64,000 bases of DNA from an uncultured bacterium. GTDB lineage: Bacteria; Patescibacteriota; Minisyncoccia; Phycocordibacterales; DATDWN01. Below, in pieces: positions 3,062 to 39,927 of this stretch. Every line of letters begins with the position of its first letter. Positions within the stretch are counted from its first letter, which is position 1. The translations under genes were made by a program, and so were the position numbers. The notes beneath the pieces were generated by a model. That model had not been told where the DNA came from, searched no databases, and saw only the letters and a list, made by a program, of their open reading frames with translations. The stretch lies in contig CAIOTC010000020.1 of assembly GCA_903861205.1 (NCBI GenBank), positions 39,976 to 103,975 on the forward strand, written 5' to 3'.

Positions 3062-3137
3062 AAAAATTAAAAATTTAATTTGTATAGCTTCTTGTTTTAT
3101 GTTACACTATCCACAATTATTTATATTTACACAATTT

Positions 3138-3599
3138 ATGAACGAAAAGGAATATCTTACGCAGGAGAAGTTTGACGAGTTTAAAAAGGAGCTGGCTAAT
3201 TTGAAAAATGTTCGTCGCAAGGAAGTGGCCGAGAATTTGGAATATTCAAAAGCCCTCGGTGACCTGGCGGAGAATGCTGAATATCATGAAGCGCGAGATA
3301 TGCAGGCAACCATCGAGGACCGCATTGCCAAGCTTGAGGAATTGCTCAAAAACGCCGTCATTGTTTCCGCGCATGATGCGACCGGTACTGTCAACGTCGG
3401 CTCTGTCGTGACGGTGGAAAAAGACAGTAAAACGTTCATTTACACCATTGTCGGTTCCGAGGAATCAGATGTCACCTCAAACAAAATTTCCATTCGTTCA
3501 CCGTTCGGCCAGGCTGTTCTAGGCAAGAAAAAAGGCGAAAAATTCACTTTCAAAGCACCAAACGGCGAGCTTTCGTATGTGGTTAGTGATGTGAAGTAA
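3138..3599 (+). CDS. greA: transcription elongation factor GreA
   Basis: N-terminal coiled coil (YLTQEKFDEFKKELANLK...RRKEVAE) and C-terminal FKBP-like domain. Typical GreA size from the ATG at 3138. Confidence 0.85.
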   Translation: MNEKEYLTQEKFDEFKKELANLKNVRRKEVAENLEYSKALGDLAENAEYHEARDMQATIEDRIAKLEELLKNAVIVSAHDATGTVNVGSVVTVEKDSKTFIYTIVGSEESDVTSNKISIRSPFGQAVLGKKKGEKFTFKAPNGELSYVVSDVK

Positions 3600-5839: not shown

Positions 5840-5957
5840 CAATTTTCAATTAACAATTTCCAATTTTCAATAAATGACACAATTTATCAATTAAACAAGT
5901 GAATTCAATTGGTTTATTGATTCATTGGAAAATTCATTGGAAATTGAAAATTGATAC

Positions 5958-6869
5958 TTGGAAATTATGATTCATAAATCTGTTCTTTTACATGAAGCTA
6001 TAGATGGACTGGATATTCACGAGGGCGACACCTTTGTTGACGGAACGTTGGGGAATGGCGGGCATACGGAGGAGGTTTTGAAACGGTTTGGCGACAGGGT
6101 GACTGTCATCGGAATCGATTTGGACGCGGACGCGCTGGCCAGGTCAAAGGAGCGACTTTCAAAGCAAGGCTGGAACAACGTCAAATACGCCCAGGGCAGT
6201 TTCCGGAACATCGACCAAATTTTAACGACACTTAGTGTTGTAAAGGTAGACAGGATTTTGCTGGATATCGGGTTGTCGTCGAATCAGTTTGAGGAATCGG
6301 GCAGGGGATTTTCATTTCAGAAAGATGAACCACTCGTCATGAATTTCAAAAAAGATTTGACCGAAAATGATTTGACCGCCAAAGAAATTCTGAACACATG
6401 GGACGAGGAAAACATTGTGGCGATACTTCAGGGCTACGGCGAGGAGCAGTTTGCGCCACGAATTGCCAAGGCGATTGTCCGATCCAGACAGCTCAAGTCG
6501 ATTGAAACGACGTTTGAATTGGTCGACATTATCATGTCCGCTACGCCGAAATTCTATCATCATCGTAAAATCCACCCGGCTACCAAGACATTCCAAGCTT
6601 TGCGAGTGACAGTCAACGACGAGATCGGCGCGATTAAAGAAGGGGCGAGAAAAAGTTTTGATATTTTAAATCCGCAAGGCAGATTGGCAATCATTTCATT
6701 TCACAGTTTGGAAGACAGAGTGGTCAAACAATTTTTTAAGCAAATGGAGGATGACGGCGTCGGCAAGCGGGTGAACAAAAAAATCATCACACCAAGCCGA
6801 GAAGAAACTACCGAGAATCCACGATCGAGAAGCGCCAAATTGAGGATAGTTGAAAAACATGCCCGGTAG
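5958..6869 (+). CDS. rsmH: 16S rRNA (cytosine1402-N4)-methyltransferase RsmH
   Basis: 303 aa with SAM-binding DGTLGNGGH and the conserved RsmH core. Follows mraZ. Confidence 0.9.
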   Translation: MEIMIHKSVLLHEAIDGLDIHEGDTFVDGTLGNGGHTEEVLKRFGDRVTVIGIDLDADALARSKERLSKQGWNNVKYAQGSFRNIDQILTTLSVVKVDRILLDIGLSSNQFEESGRGFSFQKDEPLVMNFKKDLTENDLTAKEILNTWDEENIVAILQGYGEEQFAPRIAKAIVRSRQLKSIETTFELVDIIMSATPKFYHHRKIHPATKTFQALRVTVNDEIGAIKEGARKSFDILNPQGRLAIISFHSLEDRVVKQFFKQMEDDGVGKRVNKKIITPSREETTENPRSRSAKLRIVEKHAR

Positions 6870-9067: not shown

Positions 9068-9137
9068 GTAAAATACAATTTTTAATTTAAAATTTATAAT
9101 TTAAAATAAATTTAAAATGACTGAATTTTTAAATTTT

Positions 9138-9161
9138 AAATTCATTAAAAATTCTAAATTC
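9138..9161. repeat. second copy of AT-only repeat aaattcattaaaaattctaaattc
   Basis: Identical 24-mer to 3038-3061. Both copies lie directly downstream of a PBP gene and upstream of the next gene. Confidence 0.7.
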
Positions 9162-9178
9162 TAAATTTTAAATTATTC

Positions 9179-11837: not shown

Positions 11838-11909
11838 TGACCCTACGCGGGGTCGAACCGCGCTTCTAGCCTTGAGAAGGCTATGTCCTAGCCGATAGAC
11901 GATAGGGCC
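11838..11909 (-). tRNA. tRNA-Glu (anticodon CUC), CCA not encoded
   Basis: Cloverleaf read by eye: acceptor GGCCCTA/TAGGGTC, anticodon stem TAGCC/GGCTA with loop TTCTCAA, T arm CGCGG-TTCGACC-CCGCG. Confidence 0.8.
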
Positions 11910-12348: not shown

Positions 12349-12452
12349 TTCCTTTGAACCTCCGAAATAGTTATACATGAACTGTATGATAAAGTCAAAC
12401 CCTGTTAACATCTTTTGTGGTTTTGCTGTGGCAGATTGTATATAATGTATAC

Positions 12453-15179
12453 ATGGAGCAATTTAAAAGTCCGCAGGAGGAAATAAATTTTTTGCGCGAG
12501 CAGATTACCAGCAAAGAAAAAGTCTTGAGCGAAAAAGATTTCAGCGTGGAAAAAGATACCCTGGTTCACGATCAGATTTCTCGTTACCGCGATGCCAGTC
12601 CGGCCGAAATTTTGCACCAGGATTACGCGCTCACCCCGGAAAACACAAATGAAATTGTTCTGAATCTGACGCCGGAACGCCACGACAAAAAAATAAAAGA
12701 GTTGGTTAAAATAATGGACGAAAAAGGCGTCAAAAATGCGCTGTCTGTTTTGTCGAAGTTCAAAGATCCGCACCTGGAAGACGACTTTCACCGCTTTTTG
12801 GTTCAATATGTCAAGGGTGGCAAGAAGCCGAAAGATTTCGCGCCAAAGGAAGAAAAATTCCGCGGCGTTGACATGGTTTTGTACGAGGTTGTTTTGCCGG
12901 AGGATAATTTTTCCTCACCTGGTGAGGAAAAAAACAAAACACTCAAGGAACTTATTTCCAGCATGGAGCAATTTTTTTCCGGCATGCTTTCGGTCACGAC
13001 TAAAGACGAAAAAGGAAATTACATTTCGCTGGAAATCGCCAATTCAAACGGCAGTGACCAGTTTATTTATTATGTGGCTGTGCCGGCAAAATACAAAGAT
13101 CTTTTCGAAAAGCACATCATTTCCGTTTTTCACAACGCGCGTTTGACGGAGAAAATCGACGACTACAATGTTTTCAACGAGGAGGGTTTTTCCGTCGGTT
13201 CGTGTTTGAAGACGAAAGAAAATCCGATTTATCCGTTCAAAACTTACGAGCAATTTGACCACGATCCGATGAATGTGGTGCTCAACAGCTTTTCCAAAAT
13301 CAAAAAAGACGGTGAGGGTGCCGCGCTTCAGATTATTTTTGCTCCGCGAGGGGATTATTATTACAAACGCTACGAATACGCGGTCAAGCAAATTGAAAAA
13401 GGCGTCAAAACGAAGGAAGCGATAAATCAGCCGGAAACATTTTGGGGTGAAGCGGGTCAGACATTAAAAACTTTGTTTGTTGAGCCCGAGAAAAAGGACA
13501 AGGACAAACCTGTCGACAATGATGCAATAACCAAAATCCGGGCCAAAATGTCGAGCACTATCGTGGCCACCAATATTCGCTTGGTTGTTTCGAGCCAGAA
13601 TCAAACCGACGCCGAAAATATTTTGCATACCATCGAGTCTAGCTTCAACCAATTTTCCGACACTGCTTCAAACGGTTTAGTCTGGAAGCACATTGAAAAG
13701 AGCGCGTTGCAAAAAATGTTCCGCGAATTTTCATTCAGAATGTTTAATGGAGATGAGACGATTCCACTCAATTTGCACGAGCTGACAAGTCTTATTCATT
13801 TCCAAACCAACACACTTTCGCCAACGCCACAGCTCAAACAAACACAGTCTGTCACTGCGCCTGCGCCGGCCGATATGAAAAATAGCGGGACATTTTTGGG
13901 TGTCAACAATTTCCGCAATGTTGAGACAAAAGTTTTCATCGGCGACGAAGATCGTCTGCGGCACATGTACATCATCGGCCAGACCGGTGTTGGAAAAACT
14001 GTTTGTTTGAAAAATATGGTTATCCAGGATATCGAGCGAGGCAACGGCTGTTGTTTTATCGATCCGCACGGCACAGATATTTTGGACGTTTTGGCCAACA
14101 TTCCGCAGGAGCGTTTTCAAGATGTCATTTATTTTGATCCGAGTTACACGGAACGGCCGATGGCGCTCAATATGCTCGAATACGATCTGCGATTTCCGGA
14201 ACAGAAAACTTTTGTGGTCAACGAACTGTTTTCCATTTTCCAAAAATTATACGGCGGGGTTCCGGAGTCGATGGGGCCGATTTTCGAGCAATATTTTCGC
14301 AACGCCACCATGCTGGTTATCGAGGATCCGGAGACCGGTTGTACACTGCTCGACGTTTCGCGCGTCATGGCCAACAAAGCTTATCGCGATTTGAAAATTT
14401 CTCGCTGCAAAAATCCGGTGGTGGTGGAGTTTTGGAAAGAAGTGGCCGAAAAAGCCGGTGGGGAAGCGGCGCTCTCGAACATTGTGCCGTACATCACCAG
14501 CAAGTTCGATGTCTTTTTGGCCAACGACATCATGCGGCCGATTATCGCGCAGGAAAAATCGTCCTTCAATTTCCGCGATATCATGGATAATAAGAAAATT
14601 TTGCTGGTCAACCTTGCTAAAGGCCGGCTCGGCGACATCAACGCAAACTTGATTGGGCTCATTTTGGTCGGAAAGATTTTGATGGCGGCACTCTCGAGAG
14701 TAGATTTGTTGACACCCGGTGTCAATGAGTTGTCCCCATTTTATCTTTACATCGACGAGTTCCAAAACATCACCACTGATTCGATTTCCACTATTTTGTC
14801 GGAGGCGCGCAAATATAAATTGTCGCTGACCGTAGCGCACCAGTTCATTGCCCAGCTCCAGGAAAAAATTCGCGACGCCGTTTTTGGCAATGTCGGCTCG
14901 ATTGTCTCTTTCCGCGTTTCAGCCGAGGACGCCGAATATTTGGAAAAACAATTTTCACCTGTTTTCACAGCCAAGGATATTATGAATATTGATAACTTGA
15001 ATGCGTACGTCAAAATGCTGGTGGATGGCCGGGCCGAAAAAGCATTTAACATCAAAGAACCATTTCCGCCAGCCGGCAATCCGGCTATCGTCGAATCATT
15101 AAAACAACTTTCATATCTGACATATGGTGGCAATCGCGCCGAAATCGAAGCGGGGATTTTGCAGAAGTACAAAAAGTAA
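12453..15179 (+). CDS. P-loop ATPase of the TraG/VirD4 coupling-protein / HerA-FtsK superfamily with a large uncharacterised N-terminal domain
   Basis: Walker A YIIGQTGVGKT, CFIDPHGTD, Walker B LYIDEFQN, arginine finger-like VAHQF. About 470-aa N-terminal domain with no obvious homology. The start is most likely the ATG at 12453, directly after tgtatataat (the track ORF begins at 12417). Confidence 0.55.
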   Translation: MEQFKSPQEEINFLREQITSKEKVLSEKDFSVEKDTLVHDQISRYRDASPAEILHQDYALTPENTNEIVLNLTPERHDKKIKELVKIMDEKGVKNALSVLSKFKDPHLEDDFHRFLVQYVKGGKKPKDFAPKEEKFRGVDMVLYEVVLPEDNFSSPGEEKNKTLKELISSMEQFFSGMLSVTTKDEKGNYISLEIANSNGSDQFIYYVAVPAKYKDLFEKHIISVFHNARLTEKIDDYNVFNEEGFSVGSCLKTKENPIYPFKTYEQFDHDPMNVVLNSFSKIKKDGEGAALQIIFAPRGDYYYKRYEYAVKQIEKGVKTKEAINQPETFWGEAGQTLKTLFVEPEKKDKDKPVDNDAITKIRAKMSSTIVATNIRLVVSSQNQTDAENILHTIESSFNQFSDTASNGLVWKHIEKSALQKMFREFSFRMFNGDETIPLNLHELTSLIHFQTNTLSPTPQLKQTQSVTAPAPADMKNSGTFLGVNNFRNVETKVFIGDEDRLRHMYIIGQTGVGKTVCLKNMVIQDIERGNGCCFIDPHGTDILDVLANIPQERFQDVIYFDPSYTERPMALNMLEYDLRFPEQKTFVVNELFSIFQKLYGGVPESMGPIFEQYFRNATMLVIEDPETGCTLLDVSRVMANKAYRDLKISRCKNPVVVEFWKEVAEKAGGEAALSNIVPYITSKFDVFLANDIMRPIIAQEKSSFNFRDIMDNKKILLVNLAKGRLGDINANLIGLILVGKILMAALSRVDLLTPGVNELSPFYLYIDEFQNITTDSISTILSEARKYKLSLTVAHQFIAQLQEKIRDAVFGNVGSIVSFRVSAEDAEYLEKQFSPVFTAKDIMNIDNLNAYVKMLVDGRAEKAFNIKEPFPPAGNPAIVESLKQLSYLTYGGNRAEIEAGILQKYKK
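14709..14725. repeat. palindromic repeat ttgacacccggtgtcaa (GACACC[C/G]GGTGTC family) inside the ATPase CDS, encoding LTPGV
   Basis: Perfect 17-nt palindrome. A member of a family with at least 8 copies in the window. Confidence 0.75.
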
Positions 15180-15423: not shown

Positions 15424-15501
15424 ACCAAACCTCCTGATACAATTATACTACCAACCAATATAAAAGTCAAGCTAAACTGTGGATAACTAAACCAATTTTT
15501 G

Positions 15502-15520
15502 GACACCGGGTGTCAACGAA
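15502..15520. repeat. palindromic repeat family copy gacaccgggtgtcaacgaa (intergenic), followed by aggagggct as in the uvrC copy
   Basis: Shares about 31 nt with 24838-24868 (ggacaccgggtgtcaacgaaWaggagggctWa). Confidence 0.75.
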
Positions 15521-15541
15521 TAGGAGGGCTTAGTTGAGCCA

Positions 15542-16389: not shown

Positions 16390-17430
16390 ATGGAGATAAT
16401 ACTCTATATTCTTATTGGGCTAGTGGTTGGTGGAACGATCGCATATTTATTGCGGTCGAAGCCAGAAACAAACGACACCGGGCTCAAACTAATTCTCCAG
16501 CAAATCAATGAGCTCAATCGCACGGTGGATGCCAAAATCGGCGAAAGTAGCCGGCATATGAACGAATCGGTGCGGACGCAACTTGGCGAGTCAGCCAATT
16601 TGATTCGTGAAGTGACGAAAGGTTTGACCAAACTCGACGAAACGAATCGTCAGGTGGTTTCTTTTGCCGATCAACTCCAAAATTTGCAGGACATTTTGAA
16701 AAATCCGAAACAGCGCGGAATTTTAGGCGAATATTATCTGGAAACGTTGCTGAAAAATGTTTTGGCGCCGGCGCAATATCAGATGCAATACGCTTTTGCC
16801 AGCGGGGAAATTGTTGACGCGGTTGTTTTTGTCAAAGATAAAATCATTCCGATTGACTCCAAATTTTCGCTTGAAAATTACAACCGTTTGACCGAGGCCA
16901 AAGATCCGACCGAAAAAGATCGGCTGGAAAAACTTTTTGTCAGTGACCTGAAAATCCGCATTACCGAAACGGCCAAATACATTCGGCCAGCCGAGGGGAC
17001 GATGGATTTCGCTTTTATGTTCATTCCACACGAGGCTATTTATTACGATTTACTCATCAACAAAATCGGTGGAATTTCCGACGATACGGAAAATTTGATT
17101 CAACGTGCGGCCGGAAAATACAAAGTCATTATTGTTTCGCCGACTTCATTTCTGGCTTACTTGCAAACGGTTTTGCAAGGACTCAAAGCCATGCAAATCG
17201 AGGAAACGGCCAAGGATATTATCAAACGTGTGGGCGAGCTCGGCGAACATTTGAAAAGGTACGAAACATATCACGGCAAGTTGGGCACTTCGCTCGAAAC
17301 GGTGGTCAATCATTTCAACGCTTCGAGTAAAGAATTCAAAAAAGTGGACAAGGATGTCATGCGAATAACTGGCACGTCGGTGGACATCGAAACGTCGCTG
17401 ATTGAAAAACCGGAAGATAGTAGTCAGTAG
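16390..17430 (+). CDS. rmuC: DNA recombination protein RmuC
   Basis: N-terminal TM helix, long coiled coil and a C-terminal RmuC nuclease-like domain (FMFIPHEAIYYDL...). Confidence 0.75.
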   Translation: MEIILYILIGLVVGGTIAYLLRSKPETNDTGLKLILQQINELNRTVDAKIGESSRHMNESVRTQLGESANLIREVTKGLTKLDETNRQVVSFADQLQNLQDILKNPKQRGILGEYYLETLLKNVLAPAQYQMQYAFASGEIVDAVVFVKDKIIPIDSKFSLENYNRLTEAKDPTEKDRLEKLFVSDLKIRITETAKYIRPAEGTMDFAFMFIPHEAIYYDLLINKIGGISDDTENLIQRAAGKYKVIIVSPTSFLAYLQTVLQGLKAMQIEETAKDIIKRVGELGEHLKRYETYHGKLGTSLETVVNHFNASSKEFKKVDKDVMRITGTSVDIETSLIEKPEDSSQ

Positions 17431-18505: not shown

Positions 18506-20590
18506 ATGCAATTTAAGATAAAAAAAGATTTTCAACCTGCTGGTGATCAGCCACAGGCGATTGAGAAGCTGGTCAGTGGTGTCAAAAAAGGTCTGAAGCA
18601 CCAGACCCTTTTGGGCGTGACCGGAAGCGGAAAAACTTTCACCGTGGCCAATGTTATCCAGGAAATTCAGAAGCCGACGTTGGTCATTGCCCACAACAAA
18701 ACTTTGGCCGCTCAACTGGCGCAGGAGTATCGCGAATTTTTTCCCGAAAATGCCGTGCACTATTTTGTTTCGTACTACGACTACTATCAGCCGGAAGCTT
18801 ACATGCCTGTTTCGGACACATACATAGAAAAGGAAGCGATGATAAACCAGGAAATTGAACGTTTGCGACACGCCTCGACGCAGGCGCTTCTGACGCGCAA
18901 AGATGTCATTATTGTGGCGTCTGTTTCGTGCATTTACGGCCTCGGTTCGCCGGTGGAGTATGAAAAAGTTAATTTGAAAATTGGCGTAGGCGAGCGAGTT
19001 TCCCGCGCAGAATTCATCCGCAAACTAATCGACATTCATTTCGAACGCACTACGGCGGATTTGTCGCCGGGACAGTTTCGGGCTATCGGCAACATGGTGG
19101 AAATCATGCCAGTGTCGGAAAAGTGCATTTTTAGAATTGAAATCGAAAATAGTAAAATCGAGAAAATTTTAAAAATCGACGCGATAACGAGAACGATTTT
19201 GGAAGAGACACAAGTTTTCTTTTTGTTTCCAGCCAAACATTTTATTTCCACCAAAGAACAAAGCGCGCAGGCTTTCAAAACAATCAAAGCGGAATTGGCC
19301 GGGCAATTGAAAAAATTTGAAAAGGAGGGAAAACTTTTGGAGGCGGAACGTCTCAAGCGACGAACGAGCTACGACTTGGCGCTTATTCGAGAGATTGGAT
19401 ATTGCAACGGAATCGAAAACTATTCGCGGCATTTTTCCGGCAAGTCAGCGGGCGAACCGCCGGACACTTTGTTGTCGTACTTCCCACATAAGGCTGATGG
19501 CTCGGCTGATTTTTTAACTATCATCGACGAGTCGCACGTTTCTGTCCCTCAAATTGGCGCGATGTACAACGGCGACGCGGCGCGCAAGCAAGCTCTGGTG
19601 GACTATGGTTTTCGCTTACCGAGTTGTCGTGATAATAGGCCTTTGAAGTTTGAAGAATTTGAACAGCGAGTTGGTCAGACGATTTACACCAGCGCCACGC
19701 CGAGCGATTACGAACGTGAGCACAGCACACAAGTGGTGGAGCAGGTTATTCGCCCGACCGGGCTTATCGATCCGGTGGTGGAGGTGCGCCCAATAGTGAG
19801 TGGAAAAGTGTCAAGGGTGCCCCTTGCCATGCGAAGCCAAATGGCAAAGGGCACCTTTGACACGAGTGAGAACTATCCCGGCCAGATTGCCGACTTCATT
19901 GTCGAAGCTGAAGAAAATATCAAGGCTGGCGGACGAGTGATTGCCACGACGCTGACCAAAAAAATGGCGGAGGACTTGTCGGAATATTTGAAAGAAAAAG
20001 GGATTAAAGCCGAATATTTGCACAGCGACATCAAAACGATCGAGCGAATCGAGATTTTGACCAACTTACGTAAAGGGCCGGAAAACGGTGGTTTTGATGT
20101 GCTTGTCGGAGTGAACTTGCTCCGCGAAGGTTTGGATTTGCCGGAGGTGACACTCATCGGCATTTTGGACGCGGACAAGGAGGGATTTTTGCGTAGCGAC
20201 ACATCGCTCATTCAAATCATCGGCCGCGCCGCCAGAAATGTAAAAGGCAAAGTGATTTTATACGCCGACAGCGTGACCAAGTCGATGAAATTTGCTATGG
20301 ATGAAACGAATCGCCGCCGAGCAATCCAGATTGCTTACAATACAAAACACGGCATCACTCCGAAAACGATTATTAAAAAAATTCAGGATATCACCGACCA
20401 ACTGCAATCCAAACACCAAAAAACTGTCAAAGAACTTTTAACCTTCGATATTAAAACGGAAAAAAATATCAAGTCGGTTATAAAATACAAAGAAAAACAG
20501 CTGAACTCCGCCGTCAAAATCCTCGACTTCGAAACAGCAGCGCTTTTGCGTGACGAAATTGTGGAGTTGACAAAGTTGGTGGAAAAATAA
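18506..20590 (+). CDS. uvrB: excinuclease ABC subunit B
   Basis: 694 aa with helicase motifs GVTGSGKT and DESH, a beta-hairpin region and the C-terminal UvrB/UvrC interaction motif (...AAL LRDEI...). Confidence 0.95.
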   Translation: MQFKIKKDFQPAGDQPQAIEKLVSGVKKGLKHQTLLGVTGSGKTFTVANVIQEIQKPTLVIAHNKTLAAQLAQEYREFFPENAVHYFVSYYDYYQPEAYMPVSDTYIEKEAMINQEIERLRHASTQALLTRKDVIIVASVSCIYGLGSPVEYEKVNLKIGVGERVSRAEFIRKLIDIHFERTTADLSPGQFRAIGNMVEIMPVSEKCIFRIEIENSKIEKILKIDAITRTILEETQVFFLFPAKHFISTKEQSAQAFKTIKAELAGQLKKFEKEGKLLEAERLKRRTSYDLALIREIGYCNGIENYSRHFSGKSAGEPPDTLLSYFPHKADGSADFLTIIDESHVSVPQIGAMYNGDAARKQALVDYGFRLPSCRDNRPLKFEEFEQRVGQTIYTSATPSDYEREHSTQVVEQVIRPTGLIDPVVEVRPIVSGKVSRVPLAMRSQMAKGTFDTSENYPGQIADFIVEAEENIKAGGRVIATTLTKKMAEDLSEYLKEKGIKAEYLHSDIKTIERIEILTNLRKGPENGGFDVLVGVNLLREGLDLPEVTLIGILDADKEGFLRSDTSLIQIIGRAARNVKGKVILYADSVTKSMKFAMDETNRRRAIQIAYNTKHGITPKTIIKKIQDITDQLQSKHQKTVKELLTFDIKTEKNIKSVIKYKEKQLNSAVKILDFETAALLRDEIVELTKLVEK

Positions 20591-20627
20591 AAGTGCGCAG
20601 CCGTGGCCGCACACTGATAAAAAGCTT

Positions 20628-20993
20628 TTACCATTCTGAGAAATGTTTAGGAATCGGACGATCTCCGACCAATCGTGTCTGTTCTCTAATCAGGCGTTGC
20701 CGGAGAGATTTGATATCAGAAATCAGTTCAAGGCGCGGATCATCTTCTTCGCCTTGGTACAACTCAGAATTGCACATCACATAGTTGACTATGTAACGGA
20801 ATTCTTCCATCGAAATTTCTTTTCCTGCTATTAACAATTTGTTGTAGCAAGGTAAAGTCATCACGGACAACTGGTCATTTCCTTCACCGACAACAAGTGA
20901 CATACAAGTACCTCCGGAGAAAAGACTACATTTATTTGCAAAAATAGTCAATGGTGCTATAATAACTCTGTTACACGTACACCCAATGGGCAA
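20628..20993 (-). CDS. hypothetical protein (121 aa)
   Basis: ORF convergent with uvrB and divergent from uvrA. No recognisable domain. Confidence 0.4.
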   Translation of the reverse strand: MPIGCTCNRVIIAPLTIFANKCSLFSGGTCMSLVVGEGNDQLSVMTLPCYNKLLIAGKEISMEEFRYIVNYVMCNSELYQGEEDDPRLELISDIKSLRQRLIREQTRLVGDRPIPKHFSEW

Positions 20994-21148
20994 TCCATGG
21001 GCGTGTTTCTGTATATTTCTGATGCGTTTCTGTCATTCCCGCGAAGAGCCTGTCCTCGACCTGATCGGGGACGGGAATCCAGACTTAAAATGTAACCTAG
21101 ATTCCAGCCTGCGCGGGAATGACATGAAAAAGTGGGAATGACAAAAAT

Positions 21149-23917
21149 ATGAAAAAAGAACAAAAAATAATCGGCGAAAAAATAATCGTCAAAGGCGCGC
21201 GGACACATAACTTGAAAAACATCACGGTGGAGATGCCGCGTAATAAGATGATTGCTTTCACCGGATTGTCTGGAAGTGGCAAATCGTCGCTGGCTTTTGA
21301 CACTATTTTTGCCGAGGGTCAGCGCCGATACGTGGAGTCGCTTTCGTCGTACGCGCGGCAGTTTTTGCGCCAAATGCAAAAGCCGGACGTGGATGAGATT
21401 GTTGGTCTTTCGCCGGCAATTTCCATTGATCAGAAATCGCGTTCAAACAATCCGCGTTCGACCGTGGCGACCATCACCGAGATCTACGACTACTTGCGCA
21501 TTTTGTATTCGCGCGTCGGACATCCGCACTGTTTGGTTTGCGGTGAGGAAATCAAAAAACTTTCCAACGAGGAAATCAAAAATTTTGTGCTGGAAAAAAT
21601 CGCGGTATACAAGAAGGATATTAAATCTAAGAATTTGTTGACACTTAGTGTCGGGGACGGGAAAATGGCGGTGAAAAAAGAAGATCAAATCAAGCAAGCT
21701 ATTTCTGATGCGAAAAATCGAATGTACATAGAGATTTTTGCGCCGGTGGTGCGAGGACGAAAGGGCGAATACTACCAGTTGCTTTACGATTTGCTCGGCA
21801 AAGGTTACTCGCATGTGCTCGTCGACGGAGTTCGCAAATCTTTGCGCGACAGAATTGAGCTGACAAAAACAAAACGGCACTCAATTGACGTTTTGGTCGA
21901 CAGCATCAGCATGTTGGATTTTGTAAATGATCAAAAAAGCGCCGAGGAAAGGTTGTCGGAAGATTTGGAAAAAGCTCTGCATGAGTCCGATGGTGTCGTT
22001 CGAATCGTTTTTAAAGGTGAGGATTCGTTGACACCCGGTGTCAAAGTCTCCCAGACACCGGGTGTCAACGAATCTGCAGAAAAAGAATTTTTCATGTCCA
22101 ATAAACTTTCGTGTCCAAACGACGGCTATTCATATCCGGAAGTTGAACCTCGGTTGTTTTCTTTCAACTCGCCGTATGGCGCTTGCCCGGAATGCAACGG
22201 TCTCGGTACACGATATTTTTTTAGCAAGGAAGTTTGTCCGGTCTGCCACGGCGCGCGATTGCGACCGGAAGCGCTCCATGTGACTTTGGGTAATAGCCCT
22301 AGGTCTCACCTAGGGCAGAATATTAATGGTCTAAATATTGTGGAACTGACAGCCATGTCAATCAAAGACTGCTACGATTTTTTTGAACATCTCAAATTGA
22401 CCGAGCGCGAAAAAAGTATCTCCAAAGTGGTTTTGCGAGAAATCGAATCGCGTTTGCTTTTCATGCTCAACGTCGGCATCGAATATCTCCAGCTCGATCG
22501 CCGAGCTCATACACTTTCTGGCGGAGAAGCCCAGCGTATTCGCTTGGCGTCACAACTTGGCTCGGGACTCGTCGGCGCGTTGTATGTACTCGACGAACCG
22601 ACCATCGGACTTCATTCCCGCGACAACGCTCGGTTGGTGGAAACTTTGCTCGAGTTGCGCAATCTCGGCAATACTATAATAGTGGTCGAGCACGACGAGG
22701 ACACAATTTTTGCTTCGGATTATTTGGTGGACATCGGACCAAAAGCTGGCGTGCACGGCGGGGAAGTGGTGGTTGCCGGGTATCTTGACGAACTTATCTC
22801 GGCAAAAAAGAACGAGTCTGGATCGCTCACGCTGGATTATTTGCGCGGTGACAAAATTATTGAGTTGCCTGAGTCTCGTCGAGAGTCGCCAAAAGGTGAG
22901 TTACAAATTCGCGGTGGAAAAATTTTCAATATTAAAAATTTGAATGTCGATTTGCCGCTGGGGAAATTTGTGGCGGTGACTGGTGTGTCCGGCTCTGGCA
23001 AGTCGTCTTTTGTTTACGAAATTTTGCACAAAAATTTGCAGGCGCGTTTTGAGCGTAAATATCGCAGCGCCGAAATTTTCAACTGCAAATCTTTCGCCGG
23101 AACCGAATATCTCGGCCGAGCCATTTTGATCGACCAGTCGCCGATTGGCCGAACCCCGCGCAGCAATCCAGCCACTTACACAGGCAGTTGGACGTTTATT
23201 CGCCAACTTTTCGCCGAAACTGCCGAGGCGCGAGCGCGCGGATGGAAAGCCAACAGATTTTCATTTAACGTCAAAGGTGGGCGGTGCGAAGTTTGCGGCG
23301 GCAACGGAGAAATTGAAGTGGAGATGCACTTTTTGCCGACGGTTTACGTGCCGTGCGATGTCTGTCACGGCCGGCGATTTACCAAAGAAACGTTGGAAGT
23401 AAAATACAAGCACAAAAATATTTACGACGTGCTTTCGATGACTGTCGAGGAGGCGCTGAAATTTTTCGAGGACATTCCAGCGGTGGCCGATCGTTTGAGA
23501 ACACTCAATGAAGTTGGCCTCGGATATTTGCAACTTGGCCAGTCAGCTACAACACTTTCGGGCGGTGAAGCCCAACGCGTCAAAATTTCCAGCGAGCTTT
23601 ATCGTCCGCACTTGCAGAAAACGATTTACTTGCTCGACGAGCCGACGATCGGTTTGCATTACGAGGACGTTAAAAAACTGATCGAAATTTTGCAAACCTT
23701 GGTCAATCACGGAAACACGGTGGTGGTTATTGAGCATAACATGGATATTATCAAGTCATGCGATTATGTCATCGACATCGGACCGGAAGGCGGAGATGGT
23801 GGCGGACAACTGGTGGCCAAAGGCACGCCGGAGGAAATAGCGAACACAGAGAAATCCTACACCGGGCAGTATCTCAGGAAAGCACTCAAGCAATACAAAG
23901 CGTACCGCTCGCATTAA
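21149..23917 (+). CDS. uvrA: excinuclease ABC subunit A
   Basis: 922 aa with two ABC modules (GLSGSGKSS / [17 protein letters not shown] twice) and zinc-finger Cys clusters. Confidence 0.95.
22022..22074. repeat. 53-nt perfect palindrome made of two inverted copies of gattcgttgacacccggtgtc inside uvrA (encodes [17 protein letters not shown])
   Basis: gattcgttgacacccggtgtcaaagtctcccagacaccgggtgtcaacgaatc. Same repeat family as 14709, 15502, 24838 and 56373. Confidence 0.8.
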
Positions 23918-24062
23918 TCCTCCTTTTTTAAAGGAGGTGCCCGCAGGGCGGAGGATTTTTTGAATTCAAAATCCCTCGGCCTTTGGCCACTCCCTTTAGG
24001 AAAGGGAGAATTAAATCCAAGACAAAAAGAAAAGGCGCCGGGATCTCCGGCACCTCTGGCGG

Positions 24063-24278
24063 CTAATCGAAATCTAGAGGGTTGATTTTCAGCCCTCGCC
24101 GTCGAGCTTCTCTCATGGTCCTTATGGAAAGAATCGTGAGTAAATCTTCCGGCGACCCCTCCCCGCTAATCTGAAAAATAATTTCTACGCCGGGTTGCGC
24201 GACGTATGTTTCGCCCCATAATCTAAAGTGGGGCATAATATCATTACCTAATTTGACTACATAAATCGTTCCTTGCAT
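24063..24278 (-). CDS. hypothetical small protein (71 aa)
   Basis: GGAGGAA RBS 5 nt upstream of the ATG on the minus strand. Hairpin-rich terminator region downstream. Confidence 0.4.
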   Translation of the reverse strand: MQGTIYVVKLGNDIMPHFRLWGETYVAQPGVEIIFQISGEGSPEDLLTILSIRTMREARRRGLKINPLDFD

Positions 24279-24313
24279 GTGCTTCCTCCGATAATTATGA
24301 TATAATAGATAAA

Positions 24314-25660
24314 ATGAATAGTCAAGCCATCAAAAAGAAAATAGCCAGGTTGCCGGATGCGCCTGGGGTGTATCAATTTTTGCGAGGGAAAAAGATTCTT
24401 TACATCGGTAAAGCGACATCTCTGCGCGATAGGGTGCGGAGCTATTTTGCCGGGGATATTGAAGTCACTCGCGGACCGCTAATTTCTAAAATGCTTGGGC
24501 GATTCGACGATATCAAATTTCAGAAAACTGATTCCGTTTTGGAAGCACTGATTTTGGAAGCGAATCTCATCAAAAAATATCAGCCGGAGGCCAACACAAT
24601 GGAAAAGGACGACAAAAGTTTTAATTTTGTTGTGATTACCGACGAGAATTTCCCGCGTGTTCTCGTTGTCCGCGGCAGGGAATTAGAAACATCGAGTGTC
24701 GGCGGCGAAGCAACGCAGTCACTTGGTGTTGGGAAATTATTGTATTCCTTCGGTCCCTTCACCAACGGCAGACAACTCAAGGAGGCAATGAAAATCGTCC
24801 GCAAACTTTTTCCATACCGCGATAGGTGTCAACCTGTGGACACCGGGTGTCAACGAAAAGGAGGGCTAAAAATAAGGCCATGTTTCAATCGCCAGCTCGG
24901 ATTGTGTCCGGGGGTTTGCACGGGAGAAATTAGCAAAAAAGATTATGCAAAAACGATAAAGAACATCAGGTTATTTTTTGAAGGTAATAAAAAACAAATC
25001 GTTAAAAATTTGGAAAAAGAAATGAAAATTTTGGCCAAAAATCGCGAGTTTGAAAAAGCCGGAAAAATAAAAAATAAAATATTCGCTTTGAATCATATCC
25101 GCGATGTGGCGCTGATTAAAAATGCGGATTCCCAAGGTCTGGCCTTTAATGCCCAATTCCCCAAGGACAGACCTTTGAATGCAGGGTTCAGAATTGAATC
25201 CTACGACGTTGCGCACATGTCAGGGCAAAATGTTGTCGGGGTGATGACGGTGGTGGAAAACGGCGAGACCAAAAAATCAGATTACAGAAAATTTAAAATT
25301 CGAGAAAATCCGGGAGTGAATGACACCAAAGCATTGGCGGAAATTTTGACGAGACGACTCGGGCACATCGAGTGGTCTTTGCCGAATCTGATCGTCGTTG
25401 ATGGGGGAGTGGCACAGAGAAATGTTGCAGAGAAAGTGCTGAAAGAAAACGGCGCGCAAATTCCCGTTGTGTCGGTTGTGAAAGACGATCATCACCGACC
25501 AAAACAAATTCTCGGTGACCCCGGTAGCAGAGCAAAGCTCGCTACGGGGCAGGCCGGCGGTTGGAATGAAATTGAGAGGCAGATTTTATTGGCTAACTCT
25601 GAAGCGCATCGCTTCGCCCTATCTTTTCATAAGCAATTAAGAAGTAAAAATTACCACTGA
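24314..25660 (+). CDS. uvrC: excinuclease ABC subunit C, short form (GIY-YIG plus RNase H-like endonuclease, no C-terminal HhH domain)
   Basis: GIY-YIG motif VYQFLRG...ILYIGKA...R, UvrB-interacting region and endonuclease motif ESYDVAHMSGQNVVGV. 448 aa against about 600 for typical UvrC. Contains two different repeat elements. Confidence 0.8.
   Translation: MNSQAIKKKIARLPDAPGVYQFLRGKKILYIGKATSLRDRVRSYFAGDIEVTRGPLISKMLGRFDDIKFQKTDSVLEALILEANLIKKYQPEANTMEKDDKSFNFVVITDENFPRVLVVRGRELETSSVGGEATQSLGVGKLLYSFGPFTNGRQLKEAMKIVRKLFPYRDRCQPVDTGCQRKGGLKIRPCFNRQLGLCPGVCTGEISKKDYAKTIKNIRLFFEGNKKQIVKNLEKEMKILAKNREFEKAGKIKNKIFALNHIRDVALIKNADSQGLAFNAQFPKDRPLNAGFRIESYDVAHMSGQNVVGVMTVVENGETKKSDYRKFKIRENPGVNDTKALAEILTRRLGHIEWSLPNLIVVDGGVAQRNVAEKVLKENGAQIPVVSVVKDDHHRPKQILGDPGSRAKLATGQAGGWNEIERQILLANSEAHRFALSFHKQLRSKNYH
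24825..24872. repeat. palindromic repeat family copy inside uvrC (ggtgtcaacctgtggacaccgggtgtcaacgaaaaggagggctaaaaa; encodes VDTGCQRKGG)
   Basis: 31-nt match to the intergenic copy at 15501-15531. Confidence 0.75.
25131..25184. repeat. about 54-nt palindromic repeat element, copy 2, in frame inside uvrC (encodes SQGLAFNAQFPKDRPLNA)
   Basis: About 88% identical to the intergenic copy at 1122-1175. Confidence 0.7.
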
Positions 25661-25969: not shown

Positions 25970-26950
25970 ATGCAAACGCTTCCAAATAATTTGCGCATCG
26001 GCGTCATTCGCGGCGGACCGTCGGCTGAGTATGATGTGTCACTTAAAAGTGGAGCCAATGTTTTGAAAACACTTTCGGAAACTCACAGGCCGTTGGATAT
26101 TTTCATTTCAAAAGACGGCACATGGCATGTGCAAGGAATTGTGCGAAGCCCTGAAAGAATTTTGCCTCACGTTGATGTCGTTTTTAACGCTTTGCATGGC
26201 GCGTTTGGCGAGGATGGCAAATTGCAAAAAATTTTAGATCATCACGGCGTCAAATACACCGGATCCAACTCGTATTCGTCAGCCATTTGCATGAACAAAG
26301 TTTTAAGCAAAGAAATTTTTATTAAACACGGACTGAAAACTCCACACTACGCGGTTATAAAAAGAAACGACGATATTGCTGAAAAAGTCAGAGAAATTTT
26401 CAAGACATTTGTAATGCCTGTTATCGTCAAACCGGCCGGCTCCGGATCATCAATCGGTGTGTCGGTTGTCAGAACGATTCCGGAAATAATTGATGCTGCG
26501 AGGTCAGCCTTCAAACATGGCACAAGTGTTTTGGTCGAGGAATTTATAAAAGGCAAGGAAGCGACATGCGCTGTAATGGAGGATTGGAGAGGTCAGCCAG
26601 TCTACGCGCTACTGCCGGTGGAAATAAGAATGAAAAATGAGGACAAATTTTTCGATTACGATTCAAAATATTCCGATGGCGCATGCGAGGAAATTTGCCC
26701 GGGGAAATTTTTGAAAGATGAAAAAAATGTGCTGGAAGAATGCGCCAGAAAAGCACACGAATCCTTACAATTGTCACATTATTCCAGATCAGATTTCATT
26801 GTCTCGCCAAACAGGGGAGTTTATATTTTGGAAACGAATTCCTTGCCTGGTTTGACCGATGAATCGCTTTTGCCCAAGTCGCTTTCGGCCGTCGGAATAT
26901 CCACGCGTGACTTTTTGCACCACGTTTTATCTCTTGCGATGAGTGGATAA
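25970..26950 (+). CDS. ddl: D-alanine--D-alanine ligase
   Basis: 326 aa with an ATP-grasp fold and conserved Ddl motifs (...HGAFGEDGKLQ..., ...EINSLPGLT...). Confidence 0.9.
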   Translation: MQTLPNNLRIGVIRGGPSAEYDVSLKSGANVLKTLSETHRPLDIFISKDGTWHVQGIVRSPERILPHVDVVFNALHGAFGEDGKLQKILDHHGVKYTGSNSYSSAICMNKVLSKEIFIKHGLKTPHYAVIKRNDDIAEKVREIFKTFVMPVIVKPAGSGSSIGVSVVRTIPEIIDAARSAFKHGTSVLVEEFIKGKEATCAVMEDWRGQPVYALLPVEIRMKNEDKFFDYDSKYSDGACEEICPGKFLKDEKNVLEECARKAHESLQLSHYSRSDFIVSPNRGVYILETNSLPGLTDESLLPKSLSAVGISTRDFLHHVLSLAMSG

Positions 26951-26975
26951 TTTTGTTATATTTCAGCTTGTGTTT

Positions 26976-27048
26976 GGGCCGTTAGCTCATCTGGTAGAGC
27001 ACTACATTTGCAATGTAGGGGTGGCAGGTTCGAGTCCTGTACGGTCCA
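26976..27048 (+). tRNA. tRNA-Ala (anticodon UGC)
   Basis: Acceptor GGGCCGT/ACGGTCC with a G3:U70 identity pair, D arm GCTCATCTGGTAGAGC, anticodon loop TTTGCAA, T arm GGCAGGTTCGAGTCCTGT. Confidence 0.85.
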
Positions 27049-27074
27049 CTTTTTATAAACTAACAAAAAATATT

Positions 27075-27275
27075 ATGGAAGCAGAAAAATGTTTGTGCAA
27101 GTGCAAAAAAGGCAACAGCACAATGGGCGGGATTTATGGCGTGGCATTTCTGGGCGCGCTGGTTTATTACATCCAACACGCGACGACGTTTTGGATGGGA
27201 GTTTTGGGCGTTCTCAAGGCGGCAGTCTGGCCGGCCATGCTGATCTACAAAGTTTTGTCGCTTTTGAAAATGTAA
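27075..27275 (+). CDS. small membrane protein (66 aa) with a CxCxC N-terminus
   Basis: ORF directly after tRNA-Ala (MEAEKCLCKCKKG...) with two predicted TM helices. The track ORF 26943..27275 spans the tRNA and is rejected. Confidence 0.35.
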   Translation: MEAEKCLCKCKKGNSTMGGIYGVAFLGALVYYIQHATTFWMGVLGVLKAAVWPAMLIYKVLSLLKM

Positions 27276-28817: not shown

Positions 28818-29591
28818 ATGACAAAAGCAAAAATTCTCTTGATCCATGGCTGGAACTACGCGAACTACACATCCTCTGGACGTACAGATGCATGGTCCAA
28901 CCGTTCAAAGTTTGTGCTCGCCCTGTCACAACATTTCAATGTCGTGACGATTAATTTGCCTGGATTTTGCGGACAGCCAGATCCGGAAAAGCCTTGGACA
29001 TTGGATGACTACGTCAACTATGCTGGAGAAATTATCGAGAAAGAAGAATCAAGTTACATTTTAGGATATTCTTTTGGTGGGGCGATTGCTCTGCGATGGA
29101 AAAAACAAAATGAAGGAAACGGAGTCAAAGCTATTTTGGTTTCTCCGGCGATTCTTCGCAAATACGAACACTCGGATTTGAGCCTTCCGCAGAAGATTCT
29201 CAAAAAGATTCTTCCCGGTGTGCCCATCTCTTTGCTCCGGGATTTTTACCTGACACAAATAGTCAAAAATCCTTACTATTCAAAGGCAACGAGAGTGATG
29301 CGCGAGACGTATCGTAACATTGTTGCTGTTGATTTGAGGAATGATTTGCAAAGTATTTCCGAACCGTTAACTTTAATTTATGGTGGAAACGATTCGGCTA
29401 CACCTCTGGCCCTAGTCAGGGAGGCTTTAGGTGACTCGGAAGTGCACCATGACCTATATGTCATTTCTGGTGGCGGACATGACATTGCGAATACCCACAC
29501 CGACGAACTAGTCGATCTAATCAAAAAAGTAAAGGAGGATGACGATGAAGCTCAGTCCACAGACATTTCTTCAGATTATCCAGGATGCTAA
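28818..29591 (+). CDS. alpha/beta hydrolase
   Basis: GYSFGG nucleophile-elbow motif, C-terminal His (GGGHD). Confidence 0.6.
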   Translation: MTKAKILLIHGWNYANYTSSGRTDAWSNRSKFVLALSQHFNVVTINLPGFCGQPDPEKPWTLDDYVNYAGEIIEKEESSYILGYSFGGAIALRWKKQNEGNGVKAILVSPAILRKYEHSDLSLPQKILKKILPGVPISLLRDFYLTQIVKNPYYSKATRVMRETYRNIVAVDLRNDLQSISEPLTLIYGGNDSATPLALVREALGDSEVHHDLYVISGGGHDIANTHTDELVDLIKKVKEDDDEAQSTDISSDYPGC

Positions 29592-30918
29592 GTGCGTTGG
29601 GCTACGCAATGTTGAGGATTTTGATATCCTCAACATTGCACACTTGAAACGATTCGAGTCTTTCTCTCCACAAAGTAAAATTCTCTACTTTGCGGTGTAT
29701 GAAGATGATCCCGAAAAATTTGGCTGGTATAACAAACCATTTGACCGGACGCTAAATATACAAAAACTGGGCGTTTACGAGAATTTTGTTTTTGTGGTTG
29801 ACGACAGAATTTCTGACGAACAACTTATCGGCATTCGCTACATTCGCGTGGATAATATCTATCACGCGATAGAGAGAATTTGTCGACATGTTGTTTTGCA
29901 AGTTAATCCACAAGTAATTGGGGTGACTGGCAGTGTCGGAAAAACTACTGGCACAGCACTCATTCAGGGTGTATTGGATAAAAAATTCAGTTGTGGAAGA
30001 ATTTACTCAAAACGTCTGACTCCACTAACTTTATCCTCGTGGCTGGTCAATTTTCTTGAGCCGGAGCACCAAGTCTTGACTTTGGAATACTCGATGTATC
30101 GAAAAAATCACATCGACATTTTGACTGACATATTGAGACCGGATATTAGCGTGTTTATGAACATCAAAAGAGTGCATCTTGGTGTGCAGGGAATAAATAC
30201 GCTGGACGATATTGTGGATGGCAAACGAGCTTTGGTCGACAAATCTCGTGTGGCTTTGCTTAATATCGATGATACTCGCATCTCTCGACTGAAAAGAAAA
30301 GGTGATTTTGGGTTTTCTCTGTCCAATCAGAGAGCGGACGCTTTTGTGTCAATTGCTGGCGATGAAGCAATGCTTGTTTTGAATTACACGAATCAAACCT
30401 TACGATTTGCGCCTTACATAAAAACGAGTTTGTTTTACTACCAGGCCGTTGTCGCCGGACTTCTTGGGGCGTATCTTGGAGTTCCAGCAGATTCAATTGC
30501 CGAGGCTCTGGGAAATTTTAGGCCGGCGGAAAACAGAATCAACTGGCTGGACATTTTCGGCCAACAGGTTTTGTTTGATGGCGATGTCACAACCAGCGGA
30601 CGAATGTCGTCTCTCTCCGAGCACCACTACTCAACCAGTCTGTTGATGATCCATAGTTTTGATTTTGGTGAGGAAAATGTCGACTTGCAAGTCGATGACT
30701 TCAACCAAGTTTTTTCAAAGTTTGACGAAGTTAGGGTTCTGGATACAGAGAAAAATAGAACTGTTGTTTCGAGACATTCTTTTAGAAATATCATTTTTAC
30801 ACAAAAGAATGACTTTCTTTCAGACCTCTCGAAATTTGAGTTCAAAGTTCTTCACTTCGCAATTTATTTTAGGAAACACAAAGATTTAAGTTTTCTAAAT
30901 GAGTTTATAGCCGCTTGA
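29545..30918 (+). CDS. Mur ligase family protein (MurF-like paralogue outside the dcw cluster)
   Basis: P-loop VIGVTGSVGKTT and a Mur ligase central domain. AAGGAGG is 6 nt upstream of the ATG at 29545. Overlaps the preceding gene by 47 nt. Confidence 0.55.
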   Translation: MKLSPQTFLQIIQDAKCVGLRNVEDFDILNIAHLKRFESFSPQSKILYFAVYEDDPEKFGWYNKPFDRTLNIQKLGVYENFVFVVDDRISDEQLIGIRYIRVDNIYHAIERICRHVVLQVNPQVIGVTGSVGKTTGTALIQGVLDKKFSCGRIYSKRLTPLTLSSWLVNFLEPEHQVLTLEYSMYRKNHIDILTDILRPDISVFMNIKRVHLGVQGINTLDDIVDGKRALVDKSRVALLNIDDTRISRLKRKGDFGFSLSNQRADAFVSIAGDEAMLVLNYTNQTLRFAPYIKTSLFYYQAVVAGLLGAYLGVPADSIAEALGNFRPAENRINWLDIFGQQVLFDGDVTTSGRMSSLSEHHYSTSLLMIHSFDFGEENVDLQVDDFNQVFSKFDEVRVLDTEKNRTVVSRHSFRNIIFTQKNDFLSDLSKFEFKVLHFAIYFRKHKDLSFLNEFIAA

Positions 30919-39726: not shown

Positions 39727-39927
39727 CTCCTATATCATACCAGTAAACTTATAAAAATCCAATGTACCGTTGACTTTTTCTAAAAAATGATATAGCTTAT
39801 AATTAGATTCTACACCATAGGTACACACGAAAGTCTACTACCCATGTTGTTTCTGTTCTTTGAAAGAAACAGCGTGGAAAGTGGACTTGGTAGTGTATTG
39901 TATAGGTGAATCTCCAAAAGGAGTGGT

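Follow-up and report, generated by a model that had tools for sequence, protein, structure and literature searches.

A 64-kb stretch of DNA from an uncultured bacterium of the Patescibacteriota, a member of the candidate phyla radiation (CPR), carries a short palindromic repeat, here called family 1, which occurs between genes and also, in frame, inside uvrA, uvrC, an ATPase gene and a methyltransferase gene. This stretch (contig CAIOTC010000020.1, positions 39,976 to 103,975 of the forward strand) is referred to as the window and supplies all coordinates and counts unless another contig is named, while all readable sequence of the host genome amounts to 71 kb. With moderate confidence, we regard family 1 as one of several families of miniature, non-autonomous hairpin repeats that have been copied around this CPR genome, similar to repetitive extragenic palindromes (REPs) and the hairpins formed by REP doublets (REPINs). 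The palindromic core, GACACCSGGTGTC, has seven exact matches at five loci (14711, 15502, 22030, 22054, 24839, 56378 and 56401), compared with an expected count of 0.00 and no match in any of 100 dinucleotide-preserving shuffles. The enrichment described in the initial annotation of this DNA is therefore real, although the number of copies in the window is seven rather than the "at least 8" given there. Allowing two mismatches gains only position 33537, which is at chance level (0.76 expected). One of the five loci is intergenic and the other four lie inside open reading frames (ORFs), all in frame, without stop codons and in the host genes that had been named. The family 1 features are as follows:

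14703-14725, singlet, GATTTGTTGACACCCGGTGTCAA, with a 17-nt perfect palindrome at 14709-14725; in frame in a TraG/TrwB-like ATPase gene (12417-15179), encoding LTPGVN.
15500-15532, singlet extended by non-palindromic sequence, TGGACACCGGGTGTCAACGAATAGGAGGGCTTA; intergenic between convergent genes and 9 nt 3' of the stop codon of yqeY.
22022-22074, inverted doublet with 21-nt arms (100%) and an 11-nt spacer; in frame in uvrA (21149-23917).
24825-24833, upstream half-site in uvrC, GGTGTCAAC, overlapping conserved Arg-Cys codons.
24837-24869 (locus 24825-24869), unit with extension; in frame in uvrC (24314-25660), encoding VDTGCQRKGGLK.
56370-56421, inverted doublet, 18 nt perfect, with 21-nt arms (95%) and a 10-nt spacer, encoding ISGHPVSGNLDTGCPE; in frame in a class I S-adenosylmethionine (SAM) methyltransferase gene (56263-56964), just before motif I.

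The repeat unit exceeds the palindrome. The 19-mer TTCGTTGACACCCGGTGTC is present four times, together with one TTTGTT variant, and the unit can be described as a near-perfect palindrome with a short asymmetric flank, (A/T)TTCGTT-GACACC-C-GGTGTC, in which the core is invariant in all seven copies and the flanks are variable. Its fuller form is an inverted doublet (unit-spacer-unit) giving a 21-bp hairpin, with the centres of the two palindromes 23-24 bp apart, i.e., about two helical turns. Three perfect inverted pairs had been proposed, but only those in uvrA and the methyltransferase gene are found, and the uvrC locus consists of one unit and a half-site. The uvrA and methyltransferase doublets fold far better than shuffled sequences, both as RNA (-42.9 kcal/mol, z -9.5, and -40.9 kcal/mol, z -7.4, respectively) and as DNA (z -9.6 and -8.2). 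The uvrC locus is not a perfect palindrome and folds no better than shuffles (z -0.9). Where independent contigs from ENA include a family 1 copy (L004-L006), they agree with the window at 100%, the intergenic copy included, and short ENA contigs of the same population from several samples are 99.97-100% identical to it over common stretches; as independent assemblies agree, the repeats are not assembly artefacts. The ENA contigs contribute an extra 7.3 kb, in which no further family 1 copies were found. Exact-protein searches led to such contigs alone, from window proteins other than UvrA, which had no match, and the contigs showed no polymorphism.

Evidence that the copies are related by descent comes from the sequence they have in common outside the palindrome. 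The intergenic and uvrC copies are alike at 30 of 31 aligned nucleotides, among them the non-palindromic AGGAGGGCT, within a 33-nt unit, TGGACACCGGGTGTCAACGAAwAGGAGGGCTwA, of which 12 bases are non-palindromic; the earlier observation that these two copies have a further 12 nt in common and that the unit is longer than the palindrome is hereby confirmed. When one of the two is reversed, the uvrA and methyltransferase doublets are 92% identical over 37 aligned positions, through core, spacer and core. Since non-palindromic flanks and spacers are common to the copies, we conclude that they were made from other copies. In a relative (L028), a kindred hairpin that has these flanks too, CTGTGGACACCCAGTGTCCACGAAAA, follows the stop codon of BipA closely on the 3' side. 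In the small sample available, the singlets have truncated or divergent flanks and the doublets (n=2) have 21-nt arms and homologous spacers. A Shine-Dalgarno role for the AGGAGG of the 33-nt variant was considered and rejected, as no usable ORF follows in either copy.

Family 1 is accompanied by other hairpins. A self-comparison of the window identified a second family, unrelated in sequence to the first, with one intergenic and one in-frame copy, each forming a 13-bp hairpin with a 16-nt loop. In addition, UvrA, UvrB and UvrC were aligned with those of three syntenic relatives (L007, L008 and L026) and six window-specific insertion segments were taken. Five of these six contain an inverted repeat, three of them folding clearly better than shuffles (z -5.5, -3.4 and -2.8) and two weakly so (z -2.4 and -1.5); the sixth, at 21593-21649 in uvrA, does not fold (z 0.8). 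The features concerned are:

1119-1175, family 2 intergenic copy, AAGGTCTGGCCTT - 16 nt - AAGGCCAGACCTT with flanks, beginning immediately behind the stop of ORF 867-1118; DNA fold z -4.4.
25128-25184, family 2 in-frame copy in uvrC, SQGLAFNAQFPKDRPLNA, 91% identical over 57 nt to 1119-1175; segment z -1.5.
19808-19863, quasi-palindrome in uvrB with 23-nt arms, 2 mismatches and a 10-nt loop; z -6.4 (segment z -5.5), encoding VSRVPLAMRSQMAKGTFD.
22296-22316, small perfect hairpin in uvrA, GCCCTAGGT ctc ACCTAGGGC; z -3.4, in a window-specific 12-aa insertion absent from L007, L008 and L026.
24688-24730, decaying hairpin in uvrC, in the insertion SVGGEATQSLGVG; z -2.8, common to the relative L032, where its 10-bp stem is perfect.
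25519-25551, imperfect hairpin in uvrC, CCCCGGTAGCAGAGC aaa GCTCGCTACGGGG, in the insertion PGSRAKLATGQAGG; z -2.4.

The intergenic copy of family 2 has a TAA stop codon at a position of the uvrC frame that reads TTG in the uvrC copy. The family 2 segment is lacking in most UvrC homologues, with two (P0393 and P0411) having a related peptide at the same site, and a stem akin to family 2, AAGGTCTGACCT...AGGTCAGACCTT, is present at 382-414 of L026. Compared with L008 and L029, the uvrB quasi-palindrome corresponds to an insertion of 63 nt, and its peptide QMAKGTFDT is also found as an insert in the UvrC of another genome (P0411). Strong hairpins in the window number nine, compared with none in shuffles. 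Older copies are decayed, imperfect hairpins, and such hairpins make up most of the lineage-specific insertions examined in UvrA, UvrB and UvrC of this organism.

Related CPR genomes also carry hairpins in these genes. In L007 there are four perfect palindromes, with arms of 19-25 nt, and each lies in uvrA, uvrB or uvrC. One, in uvrA, is cleanly inserted: it adds 63 nt to a site that is empty in L026, where neither arm is present, and one L007 unit recurs in frame in the L007 transketolase gene and, in part, in L029. A palindrome with 19-nt arms occupies the same uvrA loop as the window doublet in L029, the methyltransferase loop that holds the window doublet has a palindrome in L031, and the exact uvrC site that family 1 takes up in the window is occupied in L032 by another sequence, a perfect palindrome of 31 nt. 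The uvrA loop measures 117 nt in the window (21983-22099), L007 (10826-10942) and L008 (6855-6971) versus 54 nt in L026, and the uvrB loop 111 nt in the window (19787-19897) and L007 (8785-8895) versus 48 nt in L008 and L029. No homology was detectable between the uvrA-loop inserts of the window and L007 (z -0.7), and the recurrence of 63 nt could reflect a preferred cassette length or the replacement of sequence in place.

A further hairpin of 21 nt, (A/G)TGTCAAAG-N5-CTTTGACA(T/C), has a conserved stem and a variable loop and encodes MSKxPFD(I/T). It is found in frame in UvrC (three positions), the methyltransferase (one position, 6 homologues), UvrA (2 homologues) and asparagine synthase, and is confirmed at the DNA level in L029 (13520), in one gene of L030 (7003, 7036 and 7453) and in two genes of L031 (10281 and 17418). 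A connection of family 1 (TTGACAC...GTGTCAA) with this TGTCAAAG...CTTTGACA hairpin through a TTGACA half-site was rejected, given that the half-sites are opposed and TTGACAC is not enriched outside the family copies. L030 has, besides its in-frame hairpins, intergenic REPIN-like doublets at 2384-2447 and 3279-3348 with 25-nt arms (TGTCATTCCCGCGnAnGCGGGAATC ... inverted). The family 1 motif itself is absent from the related genomes. Searches for the 19-mer gave three singleton matches in 185,579 GTDB species genomes and 12 in JGI metagenomes, in unrelated GC-rich or other taxa and at chance level, and no match in viral contigs, where the family 2 25-mer was not found either.

The window is ordinary chromosomal DNA with genes for MreC, penicillin-binding proteins (PBPs), Mur ligases, GreA, aminoacyl-tRNA synthetases, RmuC, UvrB, UvrA, UvrC, Ddl and ScpA. 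Homologues of its UvrA, UvrC and methyltransferase all come from Parcubacteria/Paceibacteria-type CPR bacteria, the best UvrA match being 84% identical. Homologue alignments of these three proteins and of the ATPase place all four coding copies of family 1 in variable loops, and all four encoded segments are lineage-specific. Solved UvrA structures lack the 20-aa segment that contains the UvrA doublet; its loop is hypervariable across 120 CPR homologues, where it ranges from 3 to about 50 residues, and exceeds the empty site of L026 by 63 nt. In the methyltransferase, the doublet lies between helix 25-37 and the motif-I strand and gives 16 residues where most of 120 homologues have 8-9. The ATPase copy is situated in a variable stretch between SRVD and the Walker-B sequence FYLYIDEFQN and adds 3 aa relative to almost all of 44 homologues, while the family 1 unit of UvrC lies in a variable Cys-rich linker and is absent from the nearest relative, L032 (74% identity). 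An ancestral segment could have been recognised by orthologues encoding the same peptides with unrelated codons; TPGV, DTGC and HPVS do not occur at these sites among 120 UvrA, 120 methyltransferase and 120 UvrC homologues, excepting identical proteins of the same organism.

The intact frames suggest that translation runs through the intragenic copies and that each contributes a short, disordered loop. The structure model of the methyltransferase, with a predicted local distance difference test score (pLDDT) of 89 overall, shows residues 38-51 as coil with a pLDDT of about 51 over 41-50, and is the one good model among those considered; in UvrA the insert residues 292-310 have a pLDDT below 50, in a model that is poor as a whole (pLDDT 64) and gives weak support. 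The peptides encoded by the intragenic copies differ, HPVSGNLDTGCPE being one of them, and the core is used in all three reading registers. Adaptation of the elements to coding was considered too and is not shown, as open-frame counts are only modestly above those of shuffles. Two of the host proteins lack a domain. UvrA is without the DNA-binding insertion domain of about 115 residues (residues 355-357 align to 305-422 of solved UvrA), and UvrC has only 448 aa and no C-terminal helix-hairpin-helix domain. Similar lengths of the homologous sequences suggest that a short UvrA and UvrC are typical of the clade.

We propose that hairpin repeats would be copied from locus to locus and then filtered by selection, so that survivors would be found in 3' intergenic DNA or in tolerant loops entered in frame, where they may be harmless. 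The in-gene copies would be translated as an extra loop, in the fashion of Rickettsia palindromic elements (RPEs). For the copying step we infer either mobilisation in trans by a hairpin-recognising single-strand transposase encoded elsewhere, of the REP-associated tyrosine transposase (RAYT) or IS200-IS605 type, or patch copying guided by microhomology, and template switching may help to keep the arms perfect. In both doublets, the arms agree with the local ancestral flank over their outermost 5-6 nt only (arms GATTCGTT/AACGAATC in uvrA and TTTCAG/CTGAAG in the methyltransferase gene): the outer arm GAT TCG in uvrA equals the Asp-Ser codons of the L026 empty site, and CTGAAA in the methyltransferase gene equals the conserved Leu-Lys codons just upstream. 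Such matches are a hint of microhomology or template switching.

Several observations weigh against dispersal by a mobile repeat. The net gain in length is always smaller than the element at the methyltransferase, ATPase, uvrC and family 2 sites, e.g., +9 nt for the 17-23-nt unit of the ATPase, about +15 nt (5 aa), compared with the nearest relative, for the unit of at least 33 nt in uvrC, and +33 nt for the 57 nt of family 2 in uvrC; replacement therefore fits these sites better than insertion, and simple insertion is too simple a description. A check for target-site duplications, which had been suggested, found no consistent flanking direct repeat for family 1. The whole element is itself an inverted repeat. 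Direct repeats of 4 nt (GGAA and ATTC) flank two of the four L007 palindromes. Pfam scans of the 47 window ORFs identified no transposase, RAYT, recombinase, integrase or ParB, and the gene lists of the relatives' loci include no transposase, RAYT or recombinase. No presence/absence polymorphism of family 1 was seen between the window and ENA contigs of the same population. The over-representation of a short palindromic unit that marks REPs (7 versus 0.00) is a figure for 64 kb of the 71 kb that could be read. Furthermore, the uvrA and uvrB loops of different genomes hold unrelated palindromes of equal total length (63 nt extra), and two older uvrC hairpins show no synonymous difference from the nearest relative, which purely selfish, decaying DNA would not lead one to expect.

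Known repeat systems offer partial precedents. RPEs are families of 100-150 bp in Rickettsiales, defined by profiles from hidden Markov models (PMC1779305). The likeness to RPEs drawn in the initial annotation extends to dispersed palindromic repeats of a reduced genome which are lineage-specific, occur in intergenic DNA and in frame in conserved genes, and are tolerated as an extra peptide (PMC1779305). Placement of this type is seen in family 1 (one intergenic and four in-frame loci) and in family 2 (one of each). However, the units described here are 13-57 nt long (inserts up to 63 nt), unrelated in sequence and patescibacterial, many are nested perfect palindromes, and the older copies are conserved at the nucleotide level. 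They are not RPEs, as length and taxon alone exclude membership; what stands is a dispersed palindromic repeat that enters reading frames, and size, sequence and host set it apart. REPs are short palindromic units which form REPINs as inverted doublets with a spacer, are extragenic and are associated with RAYTs (PMC3116915). The units of the window resemble them in being imperfect palindromes, in forming long hairpins as spaced inverted doublets, in having singlets that look like decayed doublets, in the compensatory symmetry of the arms, in sites resembling 3' untranslated regions and in the presence of several families per genome (PMC3116915). This architecture of unit, spaced inverted doublets and decayed singlets is closer to REPs and REPINs than to RPEs. 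However, REPs are extragenic by definition, whereas four of five family 1 loci and one of two family 2 loci lie in ORFs, in frame, and no RAYT gene or RAYT-flanking cluster was seen among the 47 window ORFs or in the relatives' loci. As a defining feature fails for each, the repeats belong to neither RPEs nor REPs/REPINs.

Cyanobacterial hairpin repeats of about 20-30 nt, which Elhai et al. reportedly described in 2008 as seemingly mobile, nested and occasionally interrupting conserved genes, are alike in size, hairpin form and nesting and unlike in phylum, sequence and their mostly intergenic location. The coding genes of a small genome, that of yeast mitochondria, are colonised by GC clusters and byp elements, which are mobile, palindromic, short and rich in GC; byp elements are skipped by translational bypassing. 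The copies described here are bacterial, not organellar, and keep the frame open without stops, which argues for read-through. MITEs (miniature inverted-repeat transposable elements) inserted in frame in other bacteria have been reviewed (PMC10969869). Terminal inverted repeats with a target-site duplication of the MITE type were not found at the sites examined here.

The conservation of the older hairpins is best discussed together with the alternative that it favours most, namely that the hairpins are functional nucleic-acid elements under selection, acting in mRNA stability, processing or translation pausing or as DNA sites for host factors. Repetition would then reflect a common recognition requirement and not selfish spread. 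We consider this unlikely as a full account, and it may coexist with a mobile origin if the repeats have been domesticated. The uvrC gene of the window is 75% identical to that of L032 overall and 56% identical at third positions, whereas no 33-nt windows of the gene are better conserved than the two hairpin inserts common to both, which agree at all 22 third positions. At 25519-25551 the match is 33 of 33 nt, the best-conserved 33-nt stretch of uvrC, and at 24691-24723 it is 30 of 33 nt, including 11 of 11 third positions. Two stem changes are seen in the window in the hairpin at 24688-24730, both C to T and both leaving G.U pairs in the sense RNA. Between genomes, palindromes that occupy one site differ by mirrored, compensatory changes, both in uvrC (GACACCGGGTGTC versus GACCCGACGGGTC) and in uvrB (AGGGTGCCCCTTG versus AGGGTTCCCCTAG). 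Functional elements would likewise agree with intergenic copies immediately 3' of stop codons, like mRNA-stabilising REPs, and with the concentration in uvrABC, where eight of the 12 strong hairpins in coding sequences are located in 21% of about 163 kb of CPR coding DNA (estimated binomial p ~8e-4, for loci chosen around these genes). The regions that hold the excision-repair hairpins are 18506-25660 in the window, 7453-14761 in L007, 7930-14001 in L029 and 3364-7928 in L030. The gene rmuC, at 16390-17430 in the window, adjoins the uvr genes, and RmuC of E. coli is a protein that limits inversions at short inverted repeats.

However, the hairpin sequences are unrelated across loci and genomes, many relatives have empty sites with no obvious loss, several copies are visibly decaying, and an Rfam scan of the window matched two tRNAs only and none of the hairpins. 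The conservation comes from a single gene pair and the G.U argument from two substitutions. Synonymous conservation and mirrored changes may denote a functional or actively maintained hairpin, either of which would be compatible with a mobile origin.

That the palindromes were made in place by replication template switching (fold-back copying), with family 1 convergent or locally amplified and not mobile, appears quite improbable. Template switching is a documented one-step maker and keeper of perfect hairpins (PMC8794818, PMC5453318), and it would fit the arm complementarity in uvrA and the methyltransferase gene, which extends past the core into locus-specific sequence, as well as the outer arm bases that match the ancestral flank, the nested palindrome-of-palindrome form, which is suited to repeated switching, and replacement with little net change in length. 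However, one arm of such a hairpin should be ancestral local sequence and the other its inverted copy, and both arms of the 63-nt L007 uvrA insertion are new relative to the empty site of L026. Unlinked loci of family 1 and of family 2 are alike over 31-57 nt, including non-palindromic parts and spacers, which is beyond the reach of local copying, and the same hairpins turn up across genomes in genes that differ.

The least probable reading, which we rate lower still, takes the 13-17-bp palindrome as a recognition sequence, i.e., an uptake signal of a competent CPR cell or a site of an abundant dimeric protein resembling parS or a Noc-binding site (NBS), written into tolerant codons by biased uptake, conversion or binding. 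The invariant core amid varying flanks (7/7), the replacement of loop sequence with little net length change and the doublet centres about two helical turns apart are in its favour, as is the preference of Haemophilus and Neisseria uptake sequences for poorly conserved protein regions and inverted pairs. Real uptake sequences recur about once per 1-2 kb and, like partition signals, are common to related species, whereas family 1 has only five loci in 71 kb, its 13-mer is not conserved in relatives, its 19-mer is absent from species genomes and metagenomes save for chance singletons, its copies have long asymmetric flanks in common and are adjoined by no ParB or competence gene, the window lacks ParB altogether, and unrelated hairpin families act identically in the same genes; the uptake signal and protein-binding site raised in the initial annotation are thus disfavoured.

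Other repeats and features of the window were recorded alongside the hairpin families. Long palindromic intergenic repeats that are AT-rich (0-8% GC) lie at 2974-3076, 5841-5966 and 9069-9175 and have motifs such as AAATTCATTAAAAATTCTAAATTC in common, which suggests a further multi-copy repeat family. In L024, a contig of an independent assembly, the match to the window stops at 3064 and the contig ends at 9097, both within these AT-rich repeats. A hairpin with 25-nt arms at 1194-1246 (96% complementary, 3-nt loop) adjoins the family 2 element and lies directly upstream of a PBP2-like gene, whose start at 1244 it overlaps; its role might be that of an operator or a terminator, or it may be one more repeat. 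The perfect hairpin with 14-nt arms at 29606-29639, GCAATGTTGAGGAT tttgat ATCCTCAACATTGC, follows the stop of a hydrolase gene (28818-29591) inside the annotated 5' end of a Mur-ligase ORF and is probably a terminator, in which case the Mur-ligase ORF would start further downstream.

An inverted duplicate of 88 nt, 95% identical, pairs 50740-50827 with 39902-39989, and shorter pairs are found at 50308-50345 and 40399-40436 and at 48016-48038 and 41968-41990. The 88-nt duplicate takes in the 5' end, together with the region upstream, of each of two large opposed genes, 48009-50801 on the minus strand and 39928-41997 on the plus strand, which look like paralogous surface proteins with a common leader. 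The two tRNA genes are at 11838-11909 (minus strand) and 26976-27048 (plus strand), and ORF 26943-27275, which overlaps the second, is probably spurious.

Copied, REP/REPIN-like hairpins would bear on a wider question of CPR biology. Odd insertions in conserved proteins and RNAs are a known trait of CPR bacteria, and the origin of those in the proteins has lacked a clear explanation. Our literature search found RPEs, REPINs, reviews of MITEs and papers on template switching, and nothing on in-frame hairpin repeats in CPR bacteria; what is unusual in the present case is the very small size, the nesting of palindromes, the repeated use of the same loops and the conservation at the nucleotide level. 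As a tentative and rather doubtful generalisation, Patescibacteria, or at least Parcubacteria/Paceibacteria, may host undescribed ultra-small hairpin replicators of 21-63 nt that reside largely in reading frames and reuse the same permissive loops, especially in UvrA, UvrB and UvrC. These would supply much of the lineage-specific protein insertion and would then be held constant at the nucleotide level, implying a domesticated role in DNA or RNA or templated maintenance.

The present data point to a concrete source for the protein insertions of CPR bacteria, namely tiny hairpin repeats that settle in surface loops, or replace them, and become translated. The synonymous conservation of the older hairpins and their concentration in excision-repair genes would mean either that they have acquired a function or that a copy-correction process keeps the repeats intact. 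If the process is general, part of the length heterogeneity of CPR orthologues would be explained, the loop 'signatures' used in phylogeny and annotation may be selfish DNA, and the idea behind REPs, REPINs and RPEs would be extended to a phylum in which intergenic space is scarce.

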